6,133 nucleotides of DNA from a virus. The stretch covers positions 1 to 6,133 of the IMG/VR virus record IMGVR_UViG_3300045988_001084; one strand, written 5' to 3'. This document shows, in pieces, positions 1-6,133 of this stretch (position 1 is the stretch's first letter; each line of letters begins with the position of its first letter). The notes beneath the pieces are model-generated. The model saw only the letters and a program-made list of their open reading frames with translations, was not told where the DNA came from and made no database searches. The translations under genes were made by a program, and so were the position numbers.

Positions 1-55
1 AAGTATTTAGGTGTTGATAGTCTTAGTGACGCTAATAATCCTTTGGTTTATCAGA
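1..55 (+). repeat. Terminal redundancy (left copy), the signature of a circular genome linearised by assembly.
   Basis: AAGTATTTAGGTGTTGATAGTCTTAGTGACGCTAATAATCCTTTGGTTTATCAGA at 1-55 is identical to 6079-6133. It falls in the middle of the VP1 reading frame, so it is not a biological terminal repeat. Confidence 0.95.
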
Positions 56-1221
56 GTTCTCAAATTGTTAACGCTCTTCCGTTCCTTGCTTATCAGAAAA
101 TCTATTATGATTTCTTTAGTAATTCTCAATGGGAGAGACATTTGGCTTATGCTTATAATGTAGATTATTGGTCTGGAACTGGTCAACTCTCATTAGTTAC
201 GGATATGGTTAAGCTTCGCTATTCGAATTATCCTAAAGACTATTTTATGGGTATGCTTCCGTCTAGTCAGTATGGTTCAGTAGCTGTTTTGCCTTCTTAT
301 TATGATTCTTCTCATTCTTCTAATAATGTTTTGGCTTATTCCTCTGGCGCAACTCCTTCCTTTGGCTTGATGGAAAATGGTTCTTCTACTACTAATGTGA
401 CTGTTTCTAATTCTTCTGATGCTCTTCGTTATGCTACTCTTAATACTGACCTTTCCGCCCTCTCAATCCGTGCCACAGAATACCTCCAGCGTTGGAAAGA
501 GGTAGTACAATTCTCTAGTAAGGATTACTCTGACCAGATGGCTGCTCAGTTTGGTATCAAAGCTCCCGAATACATGGGTAATCATGCTCACTATATTGGA
601 GGCTGGTCTAGTGTTATTAATATCAATGAAGTAGTTAATACCAATCTTGACTCTGATTCCTCTCAGGCTTCTATTGCTGGTAAGGGTGTATCTAGTAACT
701 CTGGTCATACTCTTACTTATGATTGTGGCGCTGAACATCAGGTGATTATGTGTGTTTACCATGCTGTACCTATGTTGGATTGGAATTTGACTGGTCAAAA
801 TCCTCAATTGACTGTAACTGCTATATCTGACTTCCCTCAACCAGCGTTTGACCAACTTGGTATGCAGGCCGTTCCTGCTCTGAATCTCCAGAATAATCCA
901 GGTCGTGTCGTTTCAGGTTCTTTAGGTTATAATCTTCGCTATTGGCAGTGGAAATCTAATATTGATACCGTTCACGCTGGATTTCGTGCTGGTGCTGCTT
1001 ATCAATCTTGGTCTGCTCCTCTTGATGGCTGGCAAGTTTTGACTTCTGCTGGTGTTTGGTCTTATCAGTCCATGAAGGTTCGTCCTCAACAGTTGAATTC
1101 TATTTTTGTACCTCAGGTTGATGCTGCTAATTGCTCTGTTGCATTTGACCAATTGTTGTGTAATGTTAACTTCCAAGTATATGCTGTACAGAATTTGGAT
1201 AGAAATGGTTTACCCTTTTAA
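1..1221 (+). CDS. VP1: Major capsid protein VP1 (phiX174 F-like jelly-roll), C-terminal 406 codons plus stop. It continues in frame from 5557..6078 across the circular junction, giving about 580 aa in total.
   Basis: Frame 1 is open from base 1 (KYLGVDSLSDANNPLVYQ...) to TAA at 1219-1221. The tracked start at 43 is only a TTG inside the ORF. Position 6079 equals position 1 and 6078 is divisible by 3, so the 5557 ORF joins in frame. Size, the Ser/Thr-rich variable loops and the GGWSSVININEV-type segment resemble microvirus capsid proteins. Codons strongly favour T at the third position, as in the other genes. Confidence 0.92.
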   Translation, partial: KYLGVDSLSDANNPLVYQSSQIVNALPFLAYQKIYYDFFSNSQWERHLAYAYNVDYWSGTGQLSLVTDMVKLRYSNYPKDYFMGMLPSSQYGSVAVLPSYYDSSHSSNNVLAYSSGATPSFGLMENGSSTTNVTVSNSSDALRYATLNTDLSALSIRATEYLQRWKEVVQFSSKDYSDQMAAQFGIKAPEYMGNHAHYIGGWSSVININEVVNTNLDSDSSQASIAGKGVSSNSGHTLTYDCGAEHQVIMCVYHAVPMLDWNLTGQNPQLTVTAISDFPQPAFDQLGMQAVPALNLQNNPGRVVSGSLGYNLRYWQWKSNIDTVHAGFRAGAAYQSWSAPLDGWQVLTSAGVWSYQSMKVRPQQLNSIFVPQVDAANCSVAFDQLLCNVNFQVYAVQNLDRNGLPF

Positions 1222-1233
1222 TTGTGTGTTGTT

Positions 1234-1686
1234 ATGAGAAATTTTGCTTATATAAATTCCGATTTTATTAAGAACGAAGTTGTTCCCGAATTGGTTGAAG
1301 ATAATCCGTGTTATCAACAATCTGTGTATGATTCTGTTATGTATGATGAGACTCCTGATGGCGATTTGATTCAAGCTGATATGACTCAGATTCTTCTGAA
1401 TCAAGAAAAATACCGTCGTTTGCTTGGTGATATGAACGTGCAGAGCATTCTTGCTCAGATGTATCCTACTCAGTCTACTATTATGGATGGTATGACTGAT
1501 GATGAGCGGTTTAATTGTATTATTTCTCGGCATTGCCAGACAATGTCTGAGCGTCAAGCCGTATTACAACAGTTGGCTAATGAGAAGTCTGAATTATCGG
1601 CTTATGCCAAGTCTATGTTGGAAGAACAATTGGCAGAGAAAGAAGCAGCGCCGTCTACGGATTCCGCCCCTGCTCCTGAGTCATAA
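1234..1686 (+). CDS. Hypothetical acidic 150-aa protein, possibly an internal scaffolding or assembly protein (function not established).
   Basis: The first ATG is at 1234 (the tracked start at 1222 is TTG), 13 nt after the VP1 stop. The stop TAA at 1684-1686 overlaps the VP2 ATG (TAATG). Third-position T bias matches the other genes. The protein is rich in D/E and has a predicted helical, coiled-coil-like C-terminus (ERQAVLQQLANEKSELSAYAKSMLEEQLAEKE) and a Pro/Ser tail. Size and charge recall microvirus scaffolding proteins, but I see no diagnostic motif. Confidence 0.6.
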   Translation: MRNFAYINSDFIKNEVVPELVEDNPCYQQSVYDSVMYDETPDGDLIQADMTQILLNQEKYRRLLGDMNVQSILAQMYPTQSTIMDGMTDDERFNCIISRHCQTMSERQAVLQQLANEKSELSAYAKSMLEEQLAEKEAAPSTDSAPAPES

Positions 1687-2774
1687 TGGGTCTTTTTGAT
1701 GCTATAGCTTCCTCGGCCGCAAACCTTACCGACAATGTTGTTGGTATGGTTAATCAGAATCATCAGAATAAGGTTAATCTCCGTATGATGCGCGAACAGA
1801 ACGCATTTAACGCAGAACAGGCTCAAATCCAGCGTGATTGGCAGCAACAGATGTGGGGTATGAATAATGCCTATAACTCTCCTAACGCTATGATTTCTCG
1901 TGGTTTGAATCCGTTTGTTCAAGGTTCTGCTGCTATGGCTGGTTCTAGGTCTCCTGCTTCAGGCGGAGCTGTTGCTACTGCCGCTCCTGTTCCTAGCATG
2001 CAGGCTTATAAACCTAATTTTTCTGGCGTGTTCCAGTCTCTTGCTTCCCTTGCTCAAGCTAAGGCTTCTGAGGCTTCTTCTGGTGAATCAGTCTCTCGTG
2101 CACGTCAGACTGATACGGTAACTCCTCTTTTGTCTGATTATTATAGAGGTCTTACTAACTGGAAGAATCTATCTATTGGCTCTTCTGGTTATTGGAATCA
2201 GGAAACAGGCCGTATTTCTGCCGCTCTAGACCAGTCTACTGAGGCCCAAAATCTAAAAAATGCCCAGTTTGCTGAACGTATATCTTCCGCTCAAGAAGCA
2301 CAGATTTTGCTTAATTCTGATGCTCAACGTGTTATGAATAAATACATGGACCAGAATCAACAGGCTGATTTGTTTATTAAGGCTCAAACCTTAGCCAATC
2401 TCCAGACTCAAGGTGCTCTTACTGAGAGGCAAATCCAGACTGAAATACAACGTGCTATTCTTGCTTCTGCCGAGGCTTCTGGCAAGAAAATTGATAATCG
2501 TTTGGCTTCTGAAACGGCTGATTCTCTGATTAAGGCTGCTAACGCTTCCAATGAGTTGCAATATCGTGATAGTACGTATGATTATAAGAATGTTAAGCTT
2601 CGTAAACATACGGAGTATAAAACTTCTATGGCGAATCAGAAAGCTGCTGAATATGGTGCAGACTTGGCTCGCAAACAAGGCCGTACTCATTATTGGGAAT
2701 CCGTTTCTCGTGGTCTTGGTTCTATTGCTTCTGGTTCTGGTAATTTTGTCGGTGCATATAATGGTCGTAAATAA
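1686..2774 (+). CDS. VP2: Minor capsid / DNA pilot protein VP2 (phiX174 H-like).
   Basis: The N-terminus MGLFDAIASSAANL...NLRMMREQNAFNAEQAQIQRDWQQQMWGMNNAYNSPNAMISRGLNPF is the typical conserved VP2 head (N-x-REQNAFN ... R-x-W ... YNSP ... GLNP). It is followed by an Ala/Ser/Gly-rich linker and a long Q/A/E-rich helical region, as in pilot proteins. ATG is at 1686 and TAA at 2772-2774. Confidence 0.88.
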   Translation: MGLFDAIASSAANLTDNVVGMVNQNHQNKVNLRMMREQNAFNAEQAQIQRDWQQQMWGMNNAYNSPNAMISRGLNPFVQGSAAMAGSRSPASGGAVATAAPVPSMQAYKPNFSGVFQSLASLAQAKASEASSGESVSRARQTDTVTPLLSDYYRGLTNWKNLSIGSSGYWNQETGRISAALDQSTEAQNLKNAQFAERISSAQEAQILLNSDAQRVMNKYMDQNQQADLFIKAQTLANLQTQGALTERQIQTEIQRAILASAEASGKKIDNRLASETADSLIKAANASNELQYRDSTYDYKNVKLRKHTEYKTSMANQKAAEYGADLARKQGRTHYWESVSRGLGSIASGSGNFVGAYNGRK

Positions 2775-2842
2775 ATATTACTATTCGTTGTCTTATATTT
2801 TTTTTACCTATTATTTATTTTTGTTGTGAATATTTGATTTTG

Positions 2843-2854
2843 CGAAATATTTCG
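2843..2854. repeat. Perfect 12-nt palindrome CGAAATATTTCG in the AT-rich part of the large intergenic region.
   Basis: Read directly from the sequence: c2843 g a a a t a t t t c g2854 is its own reverse complement. Function is unknown; it could be a dimeric protein-binding site or a small hairpin. Confidence 0.5.
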
Positions 2855-2879
2855 ACTCTCGGTAGTAAAATAATATTAC

Positions 2880-2888
2880 GTATACATT
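2880..2888 (+). repeat. Left copy of the 9-nt direct repeat GTATACATT that brackets the GC-rich block.
   Basis: GTATACATT at 2880-2888 is identical to 3063-3071, a 183-nt offset. In both copies GAAGCCC follows, 11 nt downstream (2900-2906) and 16 nt downstream (3088-3094). The left copy directly abuts TAATATTAC (2871-2879). Confidence 0.7.
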
Positions 2889-2962
2889 CTTTAGGACTAG
2901 AAGCCCATCGCGGCGTTTGAGCGATATACACCCGCCGCCCGCGTAGGGCCTGGTCGAAAAAT

Positions 2963-3008
2963 GGAGCGGAGCGACTTCCTTATAGGAGCGCTCCGCTCCG
3001 GTATTTTA
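2963..3008 (+). terminator. Candidate intrinsic terminator for the VP1-VP2 transcript.
   Basis: An 11-bp perfect GC-rich stem (2963-2973/2989-2999) can extend by four more pairs (2975-2978 with 2985-2988) to leave a 6-nt loop. It is followed by GGTATTTTA (3000-3008). It lies ~190 nt after the VP2 stop. The T-tract is short and interrupted, so the call is tentative. Confidence 0.4.
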
Positions 3009-3062
3009 GCACGGAGTGCGCAAAGGCAGGTTCTATCTGACCTGCCGTGCCTATACCCCCCT

Positions 3063-3071
3063 GTATACATT
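3063..3071 (+). repeat. Right copy of the 9-nt direct repeat GTATACATT.
   Basis: Exact match to 2880-2888. The 174 nt between the two copies carry the highest GC content in the window. Confidence 0.7.
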
Positions 3072-3202
3072 TACTTGTTAATTAAGCGAAGCCCCTAGTT
3101 GTGTGCGAAGCAAATCCGAGTTATCCTCTCGGATTCTCCTGTTTCTTGTCTATAAACGCACAACTCACACTCTACGGTAGAATCTAAAAAAAAGAGATTT
3201 CT

Positions 3203-3233
3203 TTTGGAGTTATAGAAATAGTTTGTATATTTG
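3203..3233 (+). promoter_or_regulatory. Candidate Bacteroidetes-type promoter (-33 TTTG / -7 TAnnTTTG) upstream of the 3278-5538 gene block.
   Basis: TTTG is at 3203-3206 and TATATTTG at 3226-3233, with a 19-nt spacer, about 45 nt upstream of the ATG at 3278. This matches the Bacteroides sigma-AB consensus as I recall it. The genes lack clear Shine-Dalgarno sequences, which is also typical of Bacteroidetes. A second -7-like TATTTTTG at 2816-2823 has no obvious -33 partner. Confidence 0.4.
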
Positions 3234-3277
3234 CTCCCAGTTAGAAGTTACAACCATTATTAACATTTTAAATTCTT

Positions 3278-3478
3278 ATGATTATGCAGAAATTTATTAT
3301 CTCAGTTAAAGACAAAAACACTGGTCGCGATGTTATTCCGCCTTATATTGTCAATTCTCTCGATGGCCTTGGAAATTATTCTGAGCGAATTTCTCCGCTG
3401 GGTCTTATTGTTATTGTGGATTCGATTAAAGAAGAAAATGATTTTATTAACCTCAACACTCAAGGCGATGAAAAGTAA
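3278..3478 (+). CDS. Hypothetical small acidic protein (66 aa).
   Basis: ATG is at 3278 and TAA at 3476-3478. About half of its codons end in T (34 of 66 by my count), matching the bias of the recognised genes. The overlapping 3330 frame lacks this bias. I recognise no motif. There is no TM segment or signal peptide, and D/E residues exceed K/R. Confidence 0.6.
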   Translation: MIMQKFIISVKDKNTGRDVIPPYIVNSLDGLGNYSERISPLGLIVIVDSIKEENDFINLNTQGDEK

Positions 3479-3551
3479 TAATATTTGGAAAATTGTTATT
3501 GGAGCCGTTTCTGCCGCTCTTGGTTATATTCTTAACGCTATTGGCTTATGA
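3468..3551 (+). CDS. 27-aa single-pass membrane peptide (MKSNNIWKIVIGAVSAALGYILNAIGL). Candidate holin-like or membrane-permeabilising partner of the downstream peptidase.
   Basis: The ATG at 3468 overlaps the last codons of the 66-aa ORF. The stop TGA at 3549-3551 overlaps the peptidase ATG at 3548 (ATGA). 17 of 27 codons end in T, which fits real coding. A short N-terminus with two lysines precedes a ~20-residue hydrophobic helix with small-residue spacing (GAVSAALG). The upstream part of the tracked 73-aa ORF (3330-3467) looks like a frame-shadow artefact. Confidence 0.45.
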   Translation: MKSNNIWKIVIGAVSAALGYILNAIGL

Positions 3552-3856
3552 ATAATGATCTTATGGATTTTTTTGAGCACCTGCTTTGTTTTAACCTGCA
3601 TTTTTCGGTAACAAGCGCTAAACGTTCTATTGCTGAAAATAAAGCTGCTGGAGGTGTTCCTAATTCGCAACATTTGGTTGGCGAAGCTGTTGATATTAAA
3701 CCGTATGGTTCTACTACTTATGGTCGGTTGCTTGAGCATATCCATAACTATTCAGACAACATTCATGTGTTTGACCAACTGATATTGTATCCTACGTTCA
3801 TTCATGTTTCATTTGGTGAGCGTAATCGTCGTCAAGTAATTGATAAAAGAAACTAA
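3548..3856 (+). CDS. Zinc D-Ala-D-Ala carboxypeptidase-like peptidase, M15 / LAS superfamily (Peptidase_M15_3-like). Probable endolysin.
   Basis: The segment VTSAKRSIAENKAAGGVPNSQHLVGEAVDI ... FIHVSF matches the M15 pattern (S-x-x-R-S ... N ... GG ... S-x-H-x6-D ... h-H-h). The putative Zn ligands are H42 (3671-3673), D49 (3692-3694) and H86 (3803-3805). At 102 aa it is a minimal domain with no signal peptide or TM segment. Confidence 0.8.
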   Translation: MNNDLMDFFEHLLCFNLHFSVTSAKRSIAENKAAGGVPNSQHLVGEAVDIKPYGSTTYGRLLEHIHNYSDNIHVFDQLILYPTFIHVSFGERNRRQVIDKRN

Positions 3857-3858
3857 TT

Positions 3859-5538
3859 ATGAATTATTCTCCCGATTTGCTTAAGGCTGTTGACCATTGT
3901 CAGCATCGTTCCTTTATCACAAATAGATATAATGGTGCCCGCATTGCTGTAGATTGCGGTCAATGTGATTATTGTATCCATAAGAAAGCTCAAAAAGCGT
4001 CCATGCGCGTGAAGACCGCTGGAAGTGCTTTTAAGTATTCTTATTTCGTTACGCTTACTTATGATAATGAACACGTGCCTCTTATGGCTTGTAAGGTTCT
4101 GCATAGTGACTATGATGACGCTATAGGCATTTCGGGAGATGTTCATTTTGGTTATGAATATCATAAATATATCCCTGTTTCTGAATATCAATGTGATGAT
4201 GACTCCATATTGCGTCATATATTCTTCGAGCAGGTACAAGGCACAGTGCCGTTTGACCGTGAGCTTAAGGAGTATGCTCCTGTTAAGGATAATTGGTTCC
4301 TTAGTATGGCTGCTATTCGTAGCTTTATCTATAAGACGCAATCGGTTGACAAAACGGATTATCCCGCTTCTGCACAATATGGTCGTGATAACCTTATACC
4401 CTTTTTGAACTACGCTGATGTTCAGAATTATATTAAAAGATTACGTAAATATTTATATAAACAGTTAGGTTCTTATGAAACGCTACATTTCTACGCTGTC
4501 GGTGAGTACGGCCCTGTGCATTTCCGTCCGCATTATCATATCTTATTATTCACGAACTCGGAAGAAGTCTCAAAGGTATTACGATACTGTCACGATAAGA
4601 GTTGGAAATTCGGTCGTTCAGATTTCCAGCTTGCCCGAGGTGGAGCTTCTTCATACGTTTCGAGTTACGTTAATAGCCTTAGTTCTGCTCCCTTATTATA
4701 TCGCTCATGCCGCGCGTTTAAACCCCGCTCGAGAGCGTCTCTCGGATTCTTTGAGAAAGGTTGCGATTTCGTGGAAGGTGAAGAGCCTTATGCGCAGATT
4801 GAACAAAAAATCGATTCTGTCGTTAATGGAAGAATCCATAACTTCAACGGCCTTAGTATTCGGTCAACTCCGCCCATGTCGTATATCCGTACCTTACTGC
4901 CCCGATTCTCGTCTGCTCGCAATGACGATAGTATTGCGATTGCTCGAATTCTTCGAGCTGTACACTCAACGCCAAAGAGAATTGCAAAATTCGGATTTAT
5001 CGACTACAAACAGGATTCGGTTTTGAGCCTTGTCCGTACTTATTATCAATATCTCAAAGTTCAAAATATTCTTACAGATGATGACAAAATTATATTACAC
5101 GCTTCTCGGTGTCTTACTAGGTTCTGTAACAGTTCTAGCGATGTCGATATTGAATCTTATATTAATAAGCTATATCGGTTGTTCTTATATGTCTATAAGT
5201 TCTTCCGTAACTGGCATTTGCCTTCCTTCGGTTCTGATATTAGTGCTTACTCCGGTCGTATTATGTTTATCATTAAAACAGGCATAGAATATGAAAAGAA
5301 AGCGAATTATGAAAATTTGCGAGGTATATATGGCCTTCGTTCCCAATACCCTGAACTCTCGGATTGTATGTTCGTTCTACCTGCGAACGGCCAAGAATCA
5401 GATATCTTACAGTCTATTTCACGTGAAACAATTCAGCTCCTTGAGCAACTTCGGTTCCGTAGTGCAACATTCTGTCGCGATATGATTAAGCACAAAAAAC
5501 TTAATGATGCTAATAATATTTTCAACCGCATGGTTTAA
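3859..5538 (+). CDS. VP4: Rolling-circle replication initiator protein VP4 (phiX174 A-like HUH endonuclease).
   Basis: All three RCR motifs are present. Motif 1 is FVTLTYD (4045-4065). Motif 2 (HUH) is HFRPHYHILLF, with HYH at 4531-4539. Motif 3 is the paired catalytic tyrosines YVSSYVNS (Y266 at 4654-4656, Y270 at 4666-4668; compare phiX174 A YVAKYVNK). There is an N-terminal Cys/His cluster HCQH...CGQCDYCIH. I found no P-loop in the 559 aa. Confidence 0.93.
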   Translation: MNYSPDLLKAVDHCQHRSFITNRYNGARIAVDCGQCDYCIHKKAQKASMRVKTAGSAFKYSYFVTLTYDNEHVPLMACKVLHSDYDDAIGISGDVHFGYEYHKYIPVSEYQCDDDSILRHIFFEQVQGTVPFDRELKEYAPVKDNWFLSMAAIRSFIYKTQSVDKTDYPASAQYGRDNLIPFLNYADVQNYIKRLRKYLYKQLGSYETLHFYAVGEYGPVHFRPHYHILLFTNSEEVSKVLRYCHDKSWKFGRSDFQLARGGASSYVSSYVNSLSSAPLLYRSCRAFKPRSRASLGFFEKGCDFVEGEEPYAQIEQKIDSVVNGRIHNFNGLSIRSTPPMSYIRTLLPRFSSARNDDSIAIARILRAVHSTPKRIAKFGFIDYKQDSVLSLVRTYYQYLKVQNILTDDDKIILHASRCLTRFCNSSSDVDIESYINKLYRLFLYVYKFFRNWHLPSFGSDISAYSGRIMFIIKTGIEYEKKANYENLRGIYGLRSQYPELSDCMFVLPANGQESDILQSISRETIQLLEQLRFRSATFCRDMIKHKKLNDANNIFNRMV

Positions 5539-5556
5539 TTTTTAATTTTATTGATT

Positions 5557-6133
5557 ATGAGTGATTTTAACCCTTTAGACCGAGCGAAAATTTCTACCCA
5601 TCGCTCTTCCTTCGACTTGTCTAGTAAAAAATTGTTTACAGCAAAAGTTGGAGAAATTTTACCTTGTTATTGGCAGATTGCTATCCCTGGTACTAAGTAT
5701 CGCATTTCCTCCGACTGGTTTACCCGTACCGTTCCGGTTAATACGGCTGCTTATACCCGTATTAAGGAGTATTATGATTTCTACGCTGTACCGCTGCGCC
5801 TGATTTCTCGTGTACTTCCGCAGGCATTTGCCCAGATGACGGATTATATGACTAGCGCTTCTAGTAGTACTACTAATGCGCCTGTACTTACTTCTGTTCC
5901 TAATGTTTCCCAGAGCACGATTAGCTTGTTTCTTCAAACGGCTAACGCTGGTGACCAGACTAATACTCGTGACGACGCAGGGCTTCCTATTGTTTATGGT
6001 TCTTGTAAGTTGCTTGATTTGCTTGGTTACGGTTCTTTGATTGCATCTACTAATACTGCTAAGGCTGCTATTACGAAAAAGTATTTAGGTGTTGATAGTC
6101 TTAGTGACGCTAATAATCCTTTGGTTTATCAGA
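5557..6133 (+). CDS. VP1: Major capsid protein VP1, N-terminal part. The unique part is 5557..6078; bases 6079..6133 duplicate 1..55.
   Basis: ATG at 5557-5559 lies 18 nt after the VP4 stop, and frame 1 has no stop to the window end. My translation is MSDFNPLDRAKISTHRSSFDLSSKKLFTAKVGEILPCYWQIAIPGTKYRISSDWFTRTVPVNTAAYTRIKEYYDFYAVPLRLI... The FDLS-x4-FT-x3-G-x-L-P ... PG ... Y-x-F-VP-R-L pattern is the conserved N-terminal signature of Microviridae major capsid proteins. The ORF track omits this ORF because it has no stop inside the window. Confidence 0.92.
   Translation, partial: MSDFNPLDRAKISTHRSSFDLSSKKLFTAKVGEILPCYWQIAIPGTKYRISSDWFTRTVPVNTAAYTRIKEYYDFYAVPLRLISRVLPQAFAQMTDYMTSASSSTTNAPVLTSVPNVSQSTISLFLQTANAGDQTNTRDDAGLPIVYGSCKLLDLLGYGSLIASTNTAKAAITKKYLGVDSLSDANNPLVYQ
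6079..6133 (+). repeat. Terminal redundancy (right copy).
   Basis: Exact 55-nt copy of 1-55; the offset of 6078 nt gives the genome length. Confidence 0.95.

Follow-up and report, generated by a model that had tools for sequence, protein, structure and literature searches.

The DNA analysed here (hereafter the window) comprises 6,133 nucleotides (nt), positions 1 to 6,133 of the IMG/VR virus record IMGVR_UViG_3300045988_001084. Pfam and PHROG profile matches for a capsid protein F, a pilot protein and a replication initiator (Rep) identify this 6.1-kb sequence as a microvirus genome, in line with the single-stranded DNA (ssDNA) microvirus recognised in the initial annotation, which had been made from the letters alone. 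Between an intergenic region of 500 nt and the Rep gene lie three tightly packed plus-strand open reading frames (ORFs), of 64–66 amino acids (aa), 27 codons and 102 codons. The subject of this work is the pair formed by the last two, which specify a predicted single-helix membrane peptide (MKSNNIWKIVIGAVSAALGYILNAIGL) and a putative zinc peptidase of the M15_3 family. The start of the peptide gene overlaps the stop of the upstream ORF by 11 nt (ATGAAAAGTAA), its own stop is fused to the start of the peptidase gene in an ATGA, and Rep starts 2 nt past the peptidase stop codon. The two genes prove to be real, under strong constraint, invariably linked and coupled; the enzyme comes from a phage endolysin family. 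That they make up a two-gene lysis module is the reading best supported by position and by comparison with relatives, at about even odds.

Constraint and linkage of the 27-codon gene

The lineage of the window, termed clade 1, was sampled as 68 copies found by searching with the peptidase and as 110 distinct loci found with a degenerate DNA pattern for the peptide; selection on the 27-codon ORF was analysed using 63 distinct nucleotide versions. The ratio of nonsynonymous to synonymous variation (pN/pS) was 0.113 when the ORF was read in its own frame and rose to 1.39 and 5.17 in the two alternative frames, and third codon positions varied in 25 of the 27 codons while second positions did so in only 3. 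When the calculation was restricted to codons free of overlap with the neighbouring genes, pN/pS was 0.085 (pS 0.41); for comparison, the values for the peptidase and the upstream 64-aa gene were 0.30 and 0.29, respectively. Not one of the ∼160 distinct related microvirus loci examined lacked the ORF; its ATG, stop and length are all conserved, and neither stops nor frameshifts interrupted it in the relatives. These results confirm, far beyond chance, that the small ORF is a real gene, as the initial annotation had proposed, and show it to be syntenic and under strong constraint; the coordinates, the ATGA overlap and the single hydrophobic helix which it described also proved correct when the ORF list and the sequence were read again.

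A chance open frame, or a decaying remnant without a product, was the obvious alternative, since the alternative frames of this T-rich genome contain many long hydrophobic ORFs and the peptide ORF is shorter than the minimum gene length of Prodigal. The own-frame pN/pS of 0.06–0.11 in two independent lineages (pS 0.23–0.41) and the conserved ATG, stop and length make this exceedingly improbable, and it was rejected on the grounds of codon-level selection in both lineages. The Prodigal minimum is 90 nt, which may be why the ORF is missing from many annotations.

The product appears to start at 3468, because the peptide frame read upstream of the ATG gave a pN/pS of 0.87 and residue conservation rose from 0.69 to 0.94 at the ATG itself. 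A longer, 73-aa hydrophobic form starting at an upstream in-frame ATG (ORF 3330–3551) was considered and discarded, the added portion showing no selection signal (that same pN/pS of 0.87). In 120 of 122 clade-1 loci no stop interrupts this frame over at least 45 upstream codons, and a longer isoform with two transmembrane (TM) segments, although unlikely, may occur in this clade; in the second lineage (see below) an in-frame stop occurs within 45 codons upstream in 26 of 50 loci, the nearest being 11 codons away.

The peptidase gene was found next to the peptide gene in 110 of 110 distinct peptide-bearing viral loci of clade 1, the overlap codons being ATGA in 108 and GTGA in two. All microvirus loci found via the peptidase that had enough upstream sequence carried the peptide. 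The synteny that the initial annotation had suggested checking extended to a second, distant lineage (clade 2), in which Rep is ∼27% and the peptidase ∼45% identical to those of the window and an ORF of 28–29 aa occupies the same slot. Its GenBank members are Dulem viruses 236 and 257, bajarodmic virus 410 and Microvirus mar62, and its peptide reads MKSETKSK[IV]WSAIIAA.VSLLTSI.QIFS (in mar62, MKAETKSKLWAAIISALVSLLSNLANIL). Sampling of clade 2 with the peptide pattern yielded 46 IMG/VR loci plus 71 metagenome loci. The pN/pS of its peptide was 0.063, and the peptide stop was separated from the peptidase start by 3 nt in 42 of 50 loci and by 9–32 nt (9, 16, 21 or 32) in the rest. Dulem viruses 226, 238 and 241 have intermediate forms that bridge the two peptide types, and W7, I11, A13 and L18 are invariant across the clade-1, clade-2 and intermediate peptides. 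The peptide–peptidase pair is therefore present in at least ∼160 genomes belonging to two deep lineages.

None of the 35 GenBank phage records that contain the peptide has it annotated as a gene of its own. Some annotation pipelines do predict it: JGI has the exact 27-aa and 29-aa sequences, and NCBI nr lists close variants under the name 'hypothetical protein [Microviridae sp.]'. A 124-aa 'peptidase' coding sequence (638–1012) of Dulem viruses 226 and 238 starts upstream and reads through the region of the small ORF in another frame; this is probably a misannotation that hides the 28–29-aa gene. A gene better conserved than those beside it is thus often overlooked, or left without a name, by gene callers and in deposited annotations.

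Predicted properties of the peptidase and the peptide

The 102-aa protein matched PF08291 (Peptidase_M15_3) with 37.4 bits, the gathering cut-off being 23.2 (E = 2.9e-9), and PHROG 894 ('endolysin') with E = 3e-14. The Pfam model was likewise present in all 120 of the close homologues listed, and more than 1,700 protein clusters (90% identity) matched the enzyme at E ≤ 0.001. The predicted zinc ligands H42, D49 and H86 (H-x6-D ... H) were invariant in 39 close and 13 distant homologues. In a PDB sequence search that gave a weak match, H42 and D49, which lie within NSxHxxGxAxD, aligned with positions 154 and 161 of 1LBU, a Streptomyces zinc D-Ala-D-Ala carboxypeptidase; we take these two positions to be zinc ligands of that enzyme. 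The motif RS..N..GG..NS.H..G.A.D is common to both proteins. When 13 phage homologues were aligned, including a double-stranded DNA (dsDNA) phage endolysin, S23, R26, N31, G36, S40, H42, G45, A47, D49, I79 and H86 were invariant. The 102-aa protein is therefore assigned by sequence to the M15_3 family, as a putative endolysin. Its best dsDNA-phage homologue is a 146-aa 'endolysin endopeptidase' of Stenotrophomonas phage Siara, with 50% identity over residues 21–102.

The initial annotation had described this protein as a minimal LAS/M15-fold peptidase with an intact H-x6-D ... H triad and no export signal. The family and the triad were borne out by the PF08291 match and by the ligands kept in the homologues, and a hydrophobic N-terminus is indeed absent. 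The word 'minimal' has to be given up, however, since the domain is not complete: the protein is truncated at its N-terminus and covers only positions 39–107 of the 108 of the profile. What is absent is a segment of ∼38 residues, with an F..xE[FL] motif, that is present in homologues of 126–150 aa. A survey of length forms covered 150 representatives (clusters at 50% identity) and placed the catalytic His in either of two regions, around residue 40 (23 short forms) or around residue 70 (67 full-length forms). Together with the missing N-terminus, this indicates that the enzyme belongs to a distinct truncated M15_3 subfamily rather than being an outsider.

The AlphaFold2 model of the peptidase had a pLDDT of 86.6 and a pTM of 0.76. 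A Foldseek search of BFVD returned viral 'Peptidase M15/M15A' models as top matches with a probability of 1.0, although the TM-scores were just 0.37–0.59, and the model superposed on a 69%-identical BFVD model with a TM-score of only 0.70. Either the predicted topology is wrong, owing to a shallow alignment, or the truncated form may pack unlike the known LAS enzymes. Since the fold comparison is ambiguous, membership of the family rests on the sequence.

The peptide has a basic N-terminus (M1, K2, K8), a Trp at the presumed membrane interface and a predicted single helix, with a hydrophobic core of ∼19–22 residues (mean Kyte–Doolittle hydropathy 2.0 over 19 residues). On a helical wheel, K8, G12, S15, G19, N23 and G26 fall within a 100-degree arc, forming a small/polar stripe along one face. 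Judged from its sequence and position, it would answer to the description of a holin as a small protein of TM hydropathy encoded beside an endolysin gene, an arrangement found in 110 of the 110 loci. Pfam and PHROG profiles gave no E-like match for it.

Surroundings of the gene pair

The positions of the features of the window are collected in Table 1. The 64-aa gene overlaps the peptide start by 11 nt in 83 of 101 loci. Its product belongs to a family of acidic proteins common to very distant microviruses (9–25% identity) and usually encoded before Rep; it matched no family (Pfam, PHROG) and, as a single-sequence model (pLDDT 80; strand-strand-helix-strand), no fold in the PDB. The gene was considered as a third lysis component and rejected, since in relatives with neither peptide nor peptidase (bajarodmic virus 502 and Dulem virus 266) its homologues directly precede Rep.

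Table 1. Features of the window in order of position
Feature	Position	Strand	Basis or remark
Capsid F fragment	43–1221		PF02305, PHROG 514
Pilot protein	1686–2774		
Putative promoter box TATATTTG, fits TAnnTTTG	3226–3233	+	Read from sequence
Acidic 64-aa protein gene (66 aa from the ATG at 3278)	3284–3478	+	pN/pS 0.29; neighbour in the same apparent operon, not cassette-specific
27-codon gene, predicted single-helix membrane peptide MKSNNIWKIVIGAVSAALGYILNAIGL	3468–3551	+	ORF, codon-level selection
ATGA stop/start overlap joining the peptide and peptidase genes	3548–3551	+	Translational-coupling signature
102-aa N-terminally truncated M15_3 (LAS-type) zinc peptidase, putative endolysin	3548–3856	+	PF08291, PHROG 894
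Rep (replication initiator)	3859–5538		PF23343, PHROG 942

Other small ORFs occur beside the 64-aa homologue in peptidase-less relatives. Dulem virus 263 has a 63-aa ORF downstream of it (locus 1356–1547) with a TM segment and a lipobox-like LTAQSC, and Dulem virus 245 a 65-aa ORF upstream of it (locus 1147–1344) with a TM segment and a lipobox-like FVQAC; in both, the N-terminal TM segment ends in ...A(Q)[SA]C and is followed by a Ser/Asn-rich tail. They may be lipoproteins, or alternative lysis proteins of the same genomic region. In bajarodmic virus 411 the equivalent slot is occupied by a 32-aa membrane ORF (locus 1387–1485; 4342–4440), which matches Pfam DUF6486 with E = 2e-7 (30.9 bits; cut-off 22.7). 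The DUF6486 model did not match the window peptide, five variants of it or the clade-2 counterpart at E ≤ 10; hhalign, comparing the window-type peptide with the DUF6486-type peptide, gave a 61% probability of relationship. Attempts to find more such loci yielded nothing: searching IMG/VR with the bajarodmic virus 411 Rep gave no relatives, no locus matched a DNA pattern derived from the peptide of that virus, tblastn with the peptide returned nothing (low-complexity masking is assumed to be the reason), and alignment of Rep proteins gave close relatives only. No paper on DUF6486 was found in the literature. The 32-aa ORF indicates that very small membrane peptides before Rep are not limited to microviruses that bear the peptidase, and by sequence the stretch before Rep looks like a variable slot for small membrane proteins.

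The promoter-like box is accompanied by a TTTG 19 nt further upstream (3203–3206), the two spanning 3203–3233, and a TAnnTTTG motif is found 57–59 nt before the 64-aa ORF in 63 of 101 relatives. We take TAnnTTTG to be the consensus of the −7 promoter box of Bacteroidota/Bacteroides. The box is a putative promoter for an operon of four genes (64-aa protein, peptide, peptidase and Rep), and its fit tentatively suggests a host from the Bacteroidota. Two scans of genome contigs, one with the peptidase and the other with the peptide pattern, revealed no link to a host or prophage. In a metagenome contig of 27,412 nt, microvirus DNA abuts an ABC-permease-like gene (4243–4863); the junction lies inside the capsid gene, and the contig is therefore probably chimeric. 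Two further contigs, of 367 kb and 62 kb, are listed as bearing the exact clade-2 peptide and might be a clue to a prophage or host.

Within the intergenic region upstream of the operon (2775–3277), a block at 2890–3175 has a GC content of 55%, the genome average being ∼40%. It contains hairpins (e.g. 2964–2999, 3027–3047 and 3113–3135), with an ssDNA fold z-score of −5.9 relative to shuffled sequences, and its DNA sequence is conserved in clade 1 (about 240 loci) but not in clade 2. Possible roles for the block are a replication or complementary-strand origin and a terminator/promoter region; an Rfam scan found nothing significant.

A possible two-gene lysis module, its alternatives and known systems

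If the peptide and the peptidase form a lysis module, their genes would be carried on one late transcript and translated as a coupled pair. The 27-aa peptide would insert into the cytoplasmic membrane with its basic N-terminus inside, self-associate along the face formed by G12, S15, G19, N23 and G26 and, on reaching a critical level, permeabilise or depolarise the membrane. The cytoplasmic, signal-less M15 zinc peptidase (11.7 kDa) would thereby gain access to the murein and cut peptide stems or cross-links, upon which the cell would burst. Several observations are consistent with this idea. Linkage is absolute, with the stop/start overlap kept in 110 of 110 clade-1 loci, and the pair holds the same slot in a lineage whose Rep is only distantly related. 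The nearest dsDNA-phage homologue of the enzyme is an endolysin encoded beside holins and spanins, in agreement with the PHROG match. Having no hydrophobic N-terminus, the enzyme needs a route across the membrane, and the peptide has transmembrane-grade hydropathy and a one-sided small/polar stripe. In addition, a hydrolase of another microvirus, Gp7 of Ebor, is active in vitro (PMC11980548). Membrane insertion, oligomerisation, permeabilisation, enzyme activity and the role in lysis are all inferred.

A number of findings weigh against such a module. The peptide matched no holin or other family in Pfam, PHROGs or NCBIfam; the best holin match was PHROG 443, obtained with the clade-2 peptide only and with E = 0.13. 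It has no charged C-terminal tail, ending in ...NAIGL inside the hydrophobic segment with its only two basic residues near the N-terminus, and no dual start, a single ATG being conserved. A summed Hessa energy of +1.4 kcal/mol makes its insertion marginal. Its conservation also exceeds that of the enzyme (pN/pS 0.06–0.09 versus 0.30), which is unusual for holins, and 36 loci with an identical peptide carry 36 different peptidase sequences. The other microvirus M15 proteins inspected are full length (126–150 aa) and have no conserved micro-TM neighbour, while the 32-aa ORF of bajarodmic virus 411 sits in a genome with no peptidase. On the side of the enzyme, Foldseek found no match for the peptidase model in the PDB at E ≤ 0.001, and hence no solved LAS structure. 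The smallest holin-like proteins that we could document, TpeE and BhlA, are of ∼8 kDa, ∼2.5 times bigger than a 27-aa peptide (PMC9527704). The 'holin-like' label given in the initial annotation is thus a positional one, at variance with the absent holin-model match, tail and dual start and with the strong conservation. Since several typical holin features are missing and the size is unprecedented, we regard a two-gene lysis module, although it is the best-supported reading, as an even bet. That the 27–29-aa peptide founds a new class of 'micro-holin', or is a detachable export or anchor subunit for a trimmed endolysin, is put forward more tentatively, as somewhat short of an even chance.

The extreme conservation of the peptide fits a specific molecular target better than generic hole formation. 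The peptide might accordingly be a lysis or toxicity factor of the single-gene type which, like phiX174 E or LysM (see below), binds a conserved host membrane protein, the peptidase being an accessory that speeds wall breakdown after synthesis has stopped: a fixed protein–protein interface would leave the peptide nearly invariant while the enzyme drifts, and bajarodmic virus 411 has its DUF6486 ORF in the same slot but no peptidase. Homology to that 32-aa peptide, at the probability given above, is unproven, however; a peptide that sufficed by itself would not be expected to be inherited so strictly, in 110 of 110 loci, together with an enzyme under constraint (pN/pS 0.30), and the peptidase, being cytoplasmic, would still lack access to the wall. 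We consider this explanation unlikely, at about one chance in five. A more improbable one is that the peptide forms no holes and is a detached anchor, export partner or activator of the truncated enzyme, maybe its former N-terminal signal anchor, which would bind the peptidase and carry it to or across the membrane. The strong conservation of the peptide fits this explanation equally well. It has the length and the n-region/h-region layout of a signal peptide and ends exactly where the enzyme starts, the enzyme lacks the ∼38 N-terminal residues of its full-length homologues, and in 42 of 50 clade-2 loci both ORFs are in frame, a stop and one codon apart. Moreover, a 124-aa short-form M15_3 protein (P0261) encoded on a dsDNA-phage contig is fused to a similar N-terminus (MTSNQIKSIWLVSVFIFISLMLSFA). 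Against this stand the variable frame relation (a −1 overlap in clade 1, spacers of 3, 9, 16, 21 or 32 nt in clade 2) and the lack of any fusion in ∼160 microvirus loci; the TM segment is therefore not covalently part of the enzyme, as it is in signal-arrest-release (SAR) or signal-anchored endolysins, but a separate ORF. In addition, the peptidase frame of clade 1 usually has a stop 15 nt before its ATG and no slippery site. A fusion of the two products by readthrough or frameshifting was rejected on these same grounds, and we know of no mechanism by which a free 27-aa peptide could export a separate folded protein.

P0261 lies at positions 5001–5375 of the stretch retrieved from a 37-kb dsDNA phage contig (JGI 3300041085). 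When aligned without gaps, its fused segment and the clade-2 peptide both have 'IW' at positions 9–10, and by sequence it may be a fused counterpart of the split arrangement of the microviruses.

About as unlikely as the detached anchor is that the pair has nothing to do with lysis, the peptidase serving for wall entry (virion-bound or early) and the peptide for superinfection exclusion, takeover or assembly. Membrane proteins of small size serve phages in many ways, the gene pair immediately precedes Rep in an operon that need not be late, and Ebor Gp7 is found in virions in trace amounts (PMC11980548). The closest characterised relatives of the enzyme, however, are annotated as endolysins and sited in lysis cassettes, and a membrane peptide coupled to a muralytic enzyme is a hallmark of lysis modules. 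A T=1 capsid, moreover, offers little space for cargo.

In the mammalian gut, microviruses rank with the commonest phages. To our knowledge, the only microvirus lysis mode worked out is that of phiX174, through protein E, and no explanation has been given of how a signal-less microvirus peptidase would cross the membrane. The 27–29-aa peptide is a concrete candidate for how this occurs. Whether a micro-holin or an export or anchor subunit, it would mark the first defined route of a microvirus endolysin to the wall and a lysis strategy distinct from that of phiX174 E. If it works as proposed, it would set a new lower size limit for the gating of endolysin release and supply a minimal lysis cassette for engineering in Bacteroidota-type hosts; a micro-holin of this kind would be under half the size of any holin-like protein that we could document. 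As the initial annotation stated, M15 peptidases had already been seen in microviruses, being reported in 2012 in gut Alpavirinae and Gokushovirinae (PMC3394797); nor did the literature on microvirus lysis yield a micro-TM partner, of which it had known none. As far as we can tell, then, the enzyme was already known while its coupled, constrained micro-peptide partner is undescribed.

Among known families, DUF6486 (a profile of ∼31 aa) resembles the peptide in that the ORF of bajarodmic virus 411 lies in the equivalent slot before Rep and overlaps the upstream ORF; it differs in that the clade-1 and clade-2 peptides do not match it and in the lack of a peptidase in that virus. Lysis proteins of other small-genome phages provide a second comparison. 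E of phiX174 (91 aa) targets MraY and LysM of ssRNA phages (37 aa) targets MurJ; like the peptide studied here, these are very short proteins with a single TM helix as the active part. Unlike it, they work with no muralytic enzyme, whereas the peptide is always paired with the peptidase, and there is no sequence similarity, the conserved proline of E having no counterpart. E is also overprinted in another gene, while the ORF described here is free-standing save for its 11-nt and 4-nt overlaps.

In pinholins a glycine-zipper face lines the pore, and the stripe of G12, S15, G19 and G26 resembles that face. Pinholins partner self-exporting SAR endolysins, however, and the enzyme of the window has no SAR domain. 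Pinholin S21 68 and BhlA/TpeE (∼8 kDa) have in common with the peptide a single functional TM helix, and the oligomerisation known for them is what is proposed here; there is no sequence similarity, and TpeE, of ∼70 aa, consists of a short helix plus an amphipathic helix (PMC9527704).

Closer in genome type are the M15_3 proteins (PF08291) of gut Alpavirinae and Gokushovirinae, which like the virus of the window are gut microviruses and for whose enzyme an endolysin role was also proposed; an adjacent 'unknown ORF' was noted in 5 of 11 cases, and no membrane partner was described (PMC3394797). Microvirus Ebor (Tainavirinae) likewise combines an active wall hydrolase with a very small predicted membrane protein: Gp7 was reported in 2025 to be a peptidoglycan hydrolase active in vitro, and Gp1 is a 45-aa membrane protein with no assigned role (PMC11980548). 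The enzyme is of another type, however (the authors' HHpred match was 6SSC), and Gp1 and Gp7 are separate table entries, neither paired nor linked to a lysis role for Gp1.

The cassette of phage Siara, which has two holin/antiholin genes and the i- and o-spanin genes downstream of the endolysin gene, belongs to a tailed dsDNA phage rather than to a 6.1-kb ssDNA microvirus. Its holins have 104–124 aa and several TM segments, in contrast to the 27 aa, one predicted helix and no soluble tail found here; the membrane gene is downstream of the enzyme gene instead of upstream, no spanin was seen in the window, and the microvirus enzyme is shorter by ∼38–45 N-terminal residues. The two enzymes nonetheless belong to the same subfamily (50% identity over residues 21–102), with HVSFGxRNRRQV at the C-terminus of both, and in both phages a muralytic enzyme without a signal peptide is encoded beside a small membrane-protein gene, the stop and start codons of the two overlapping.

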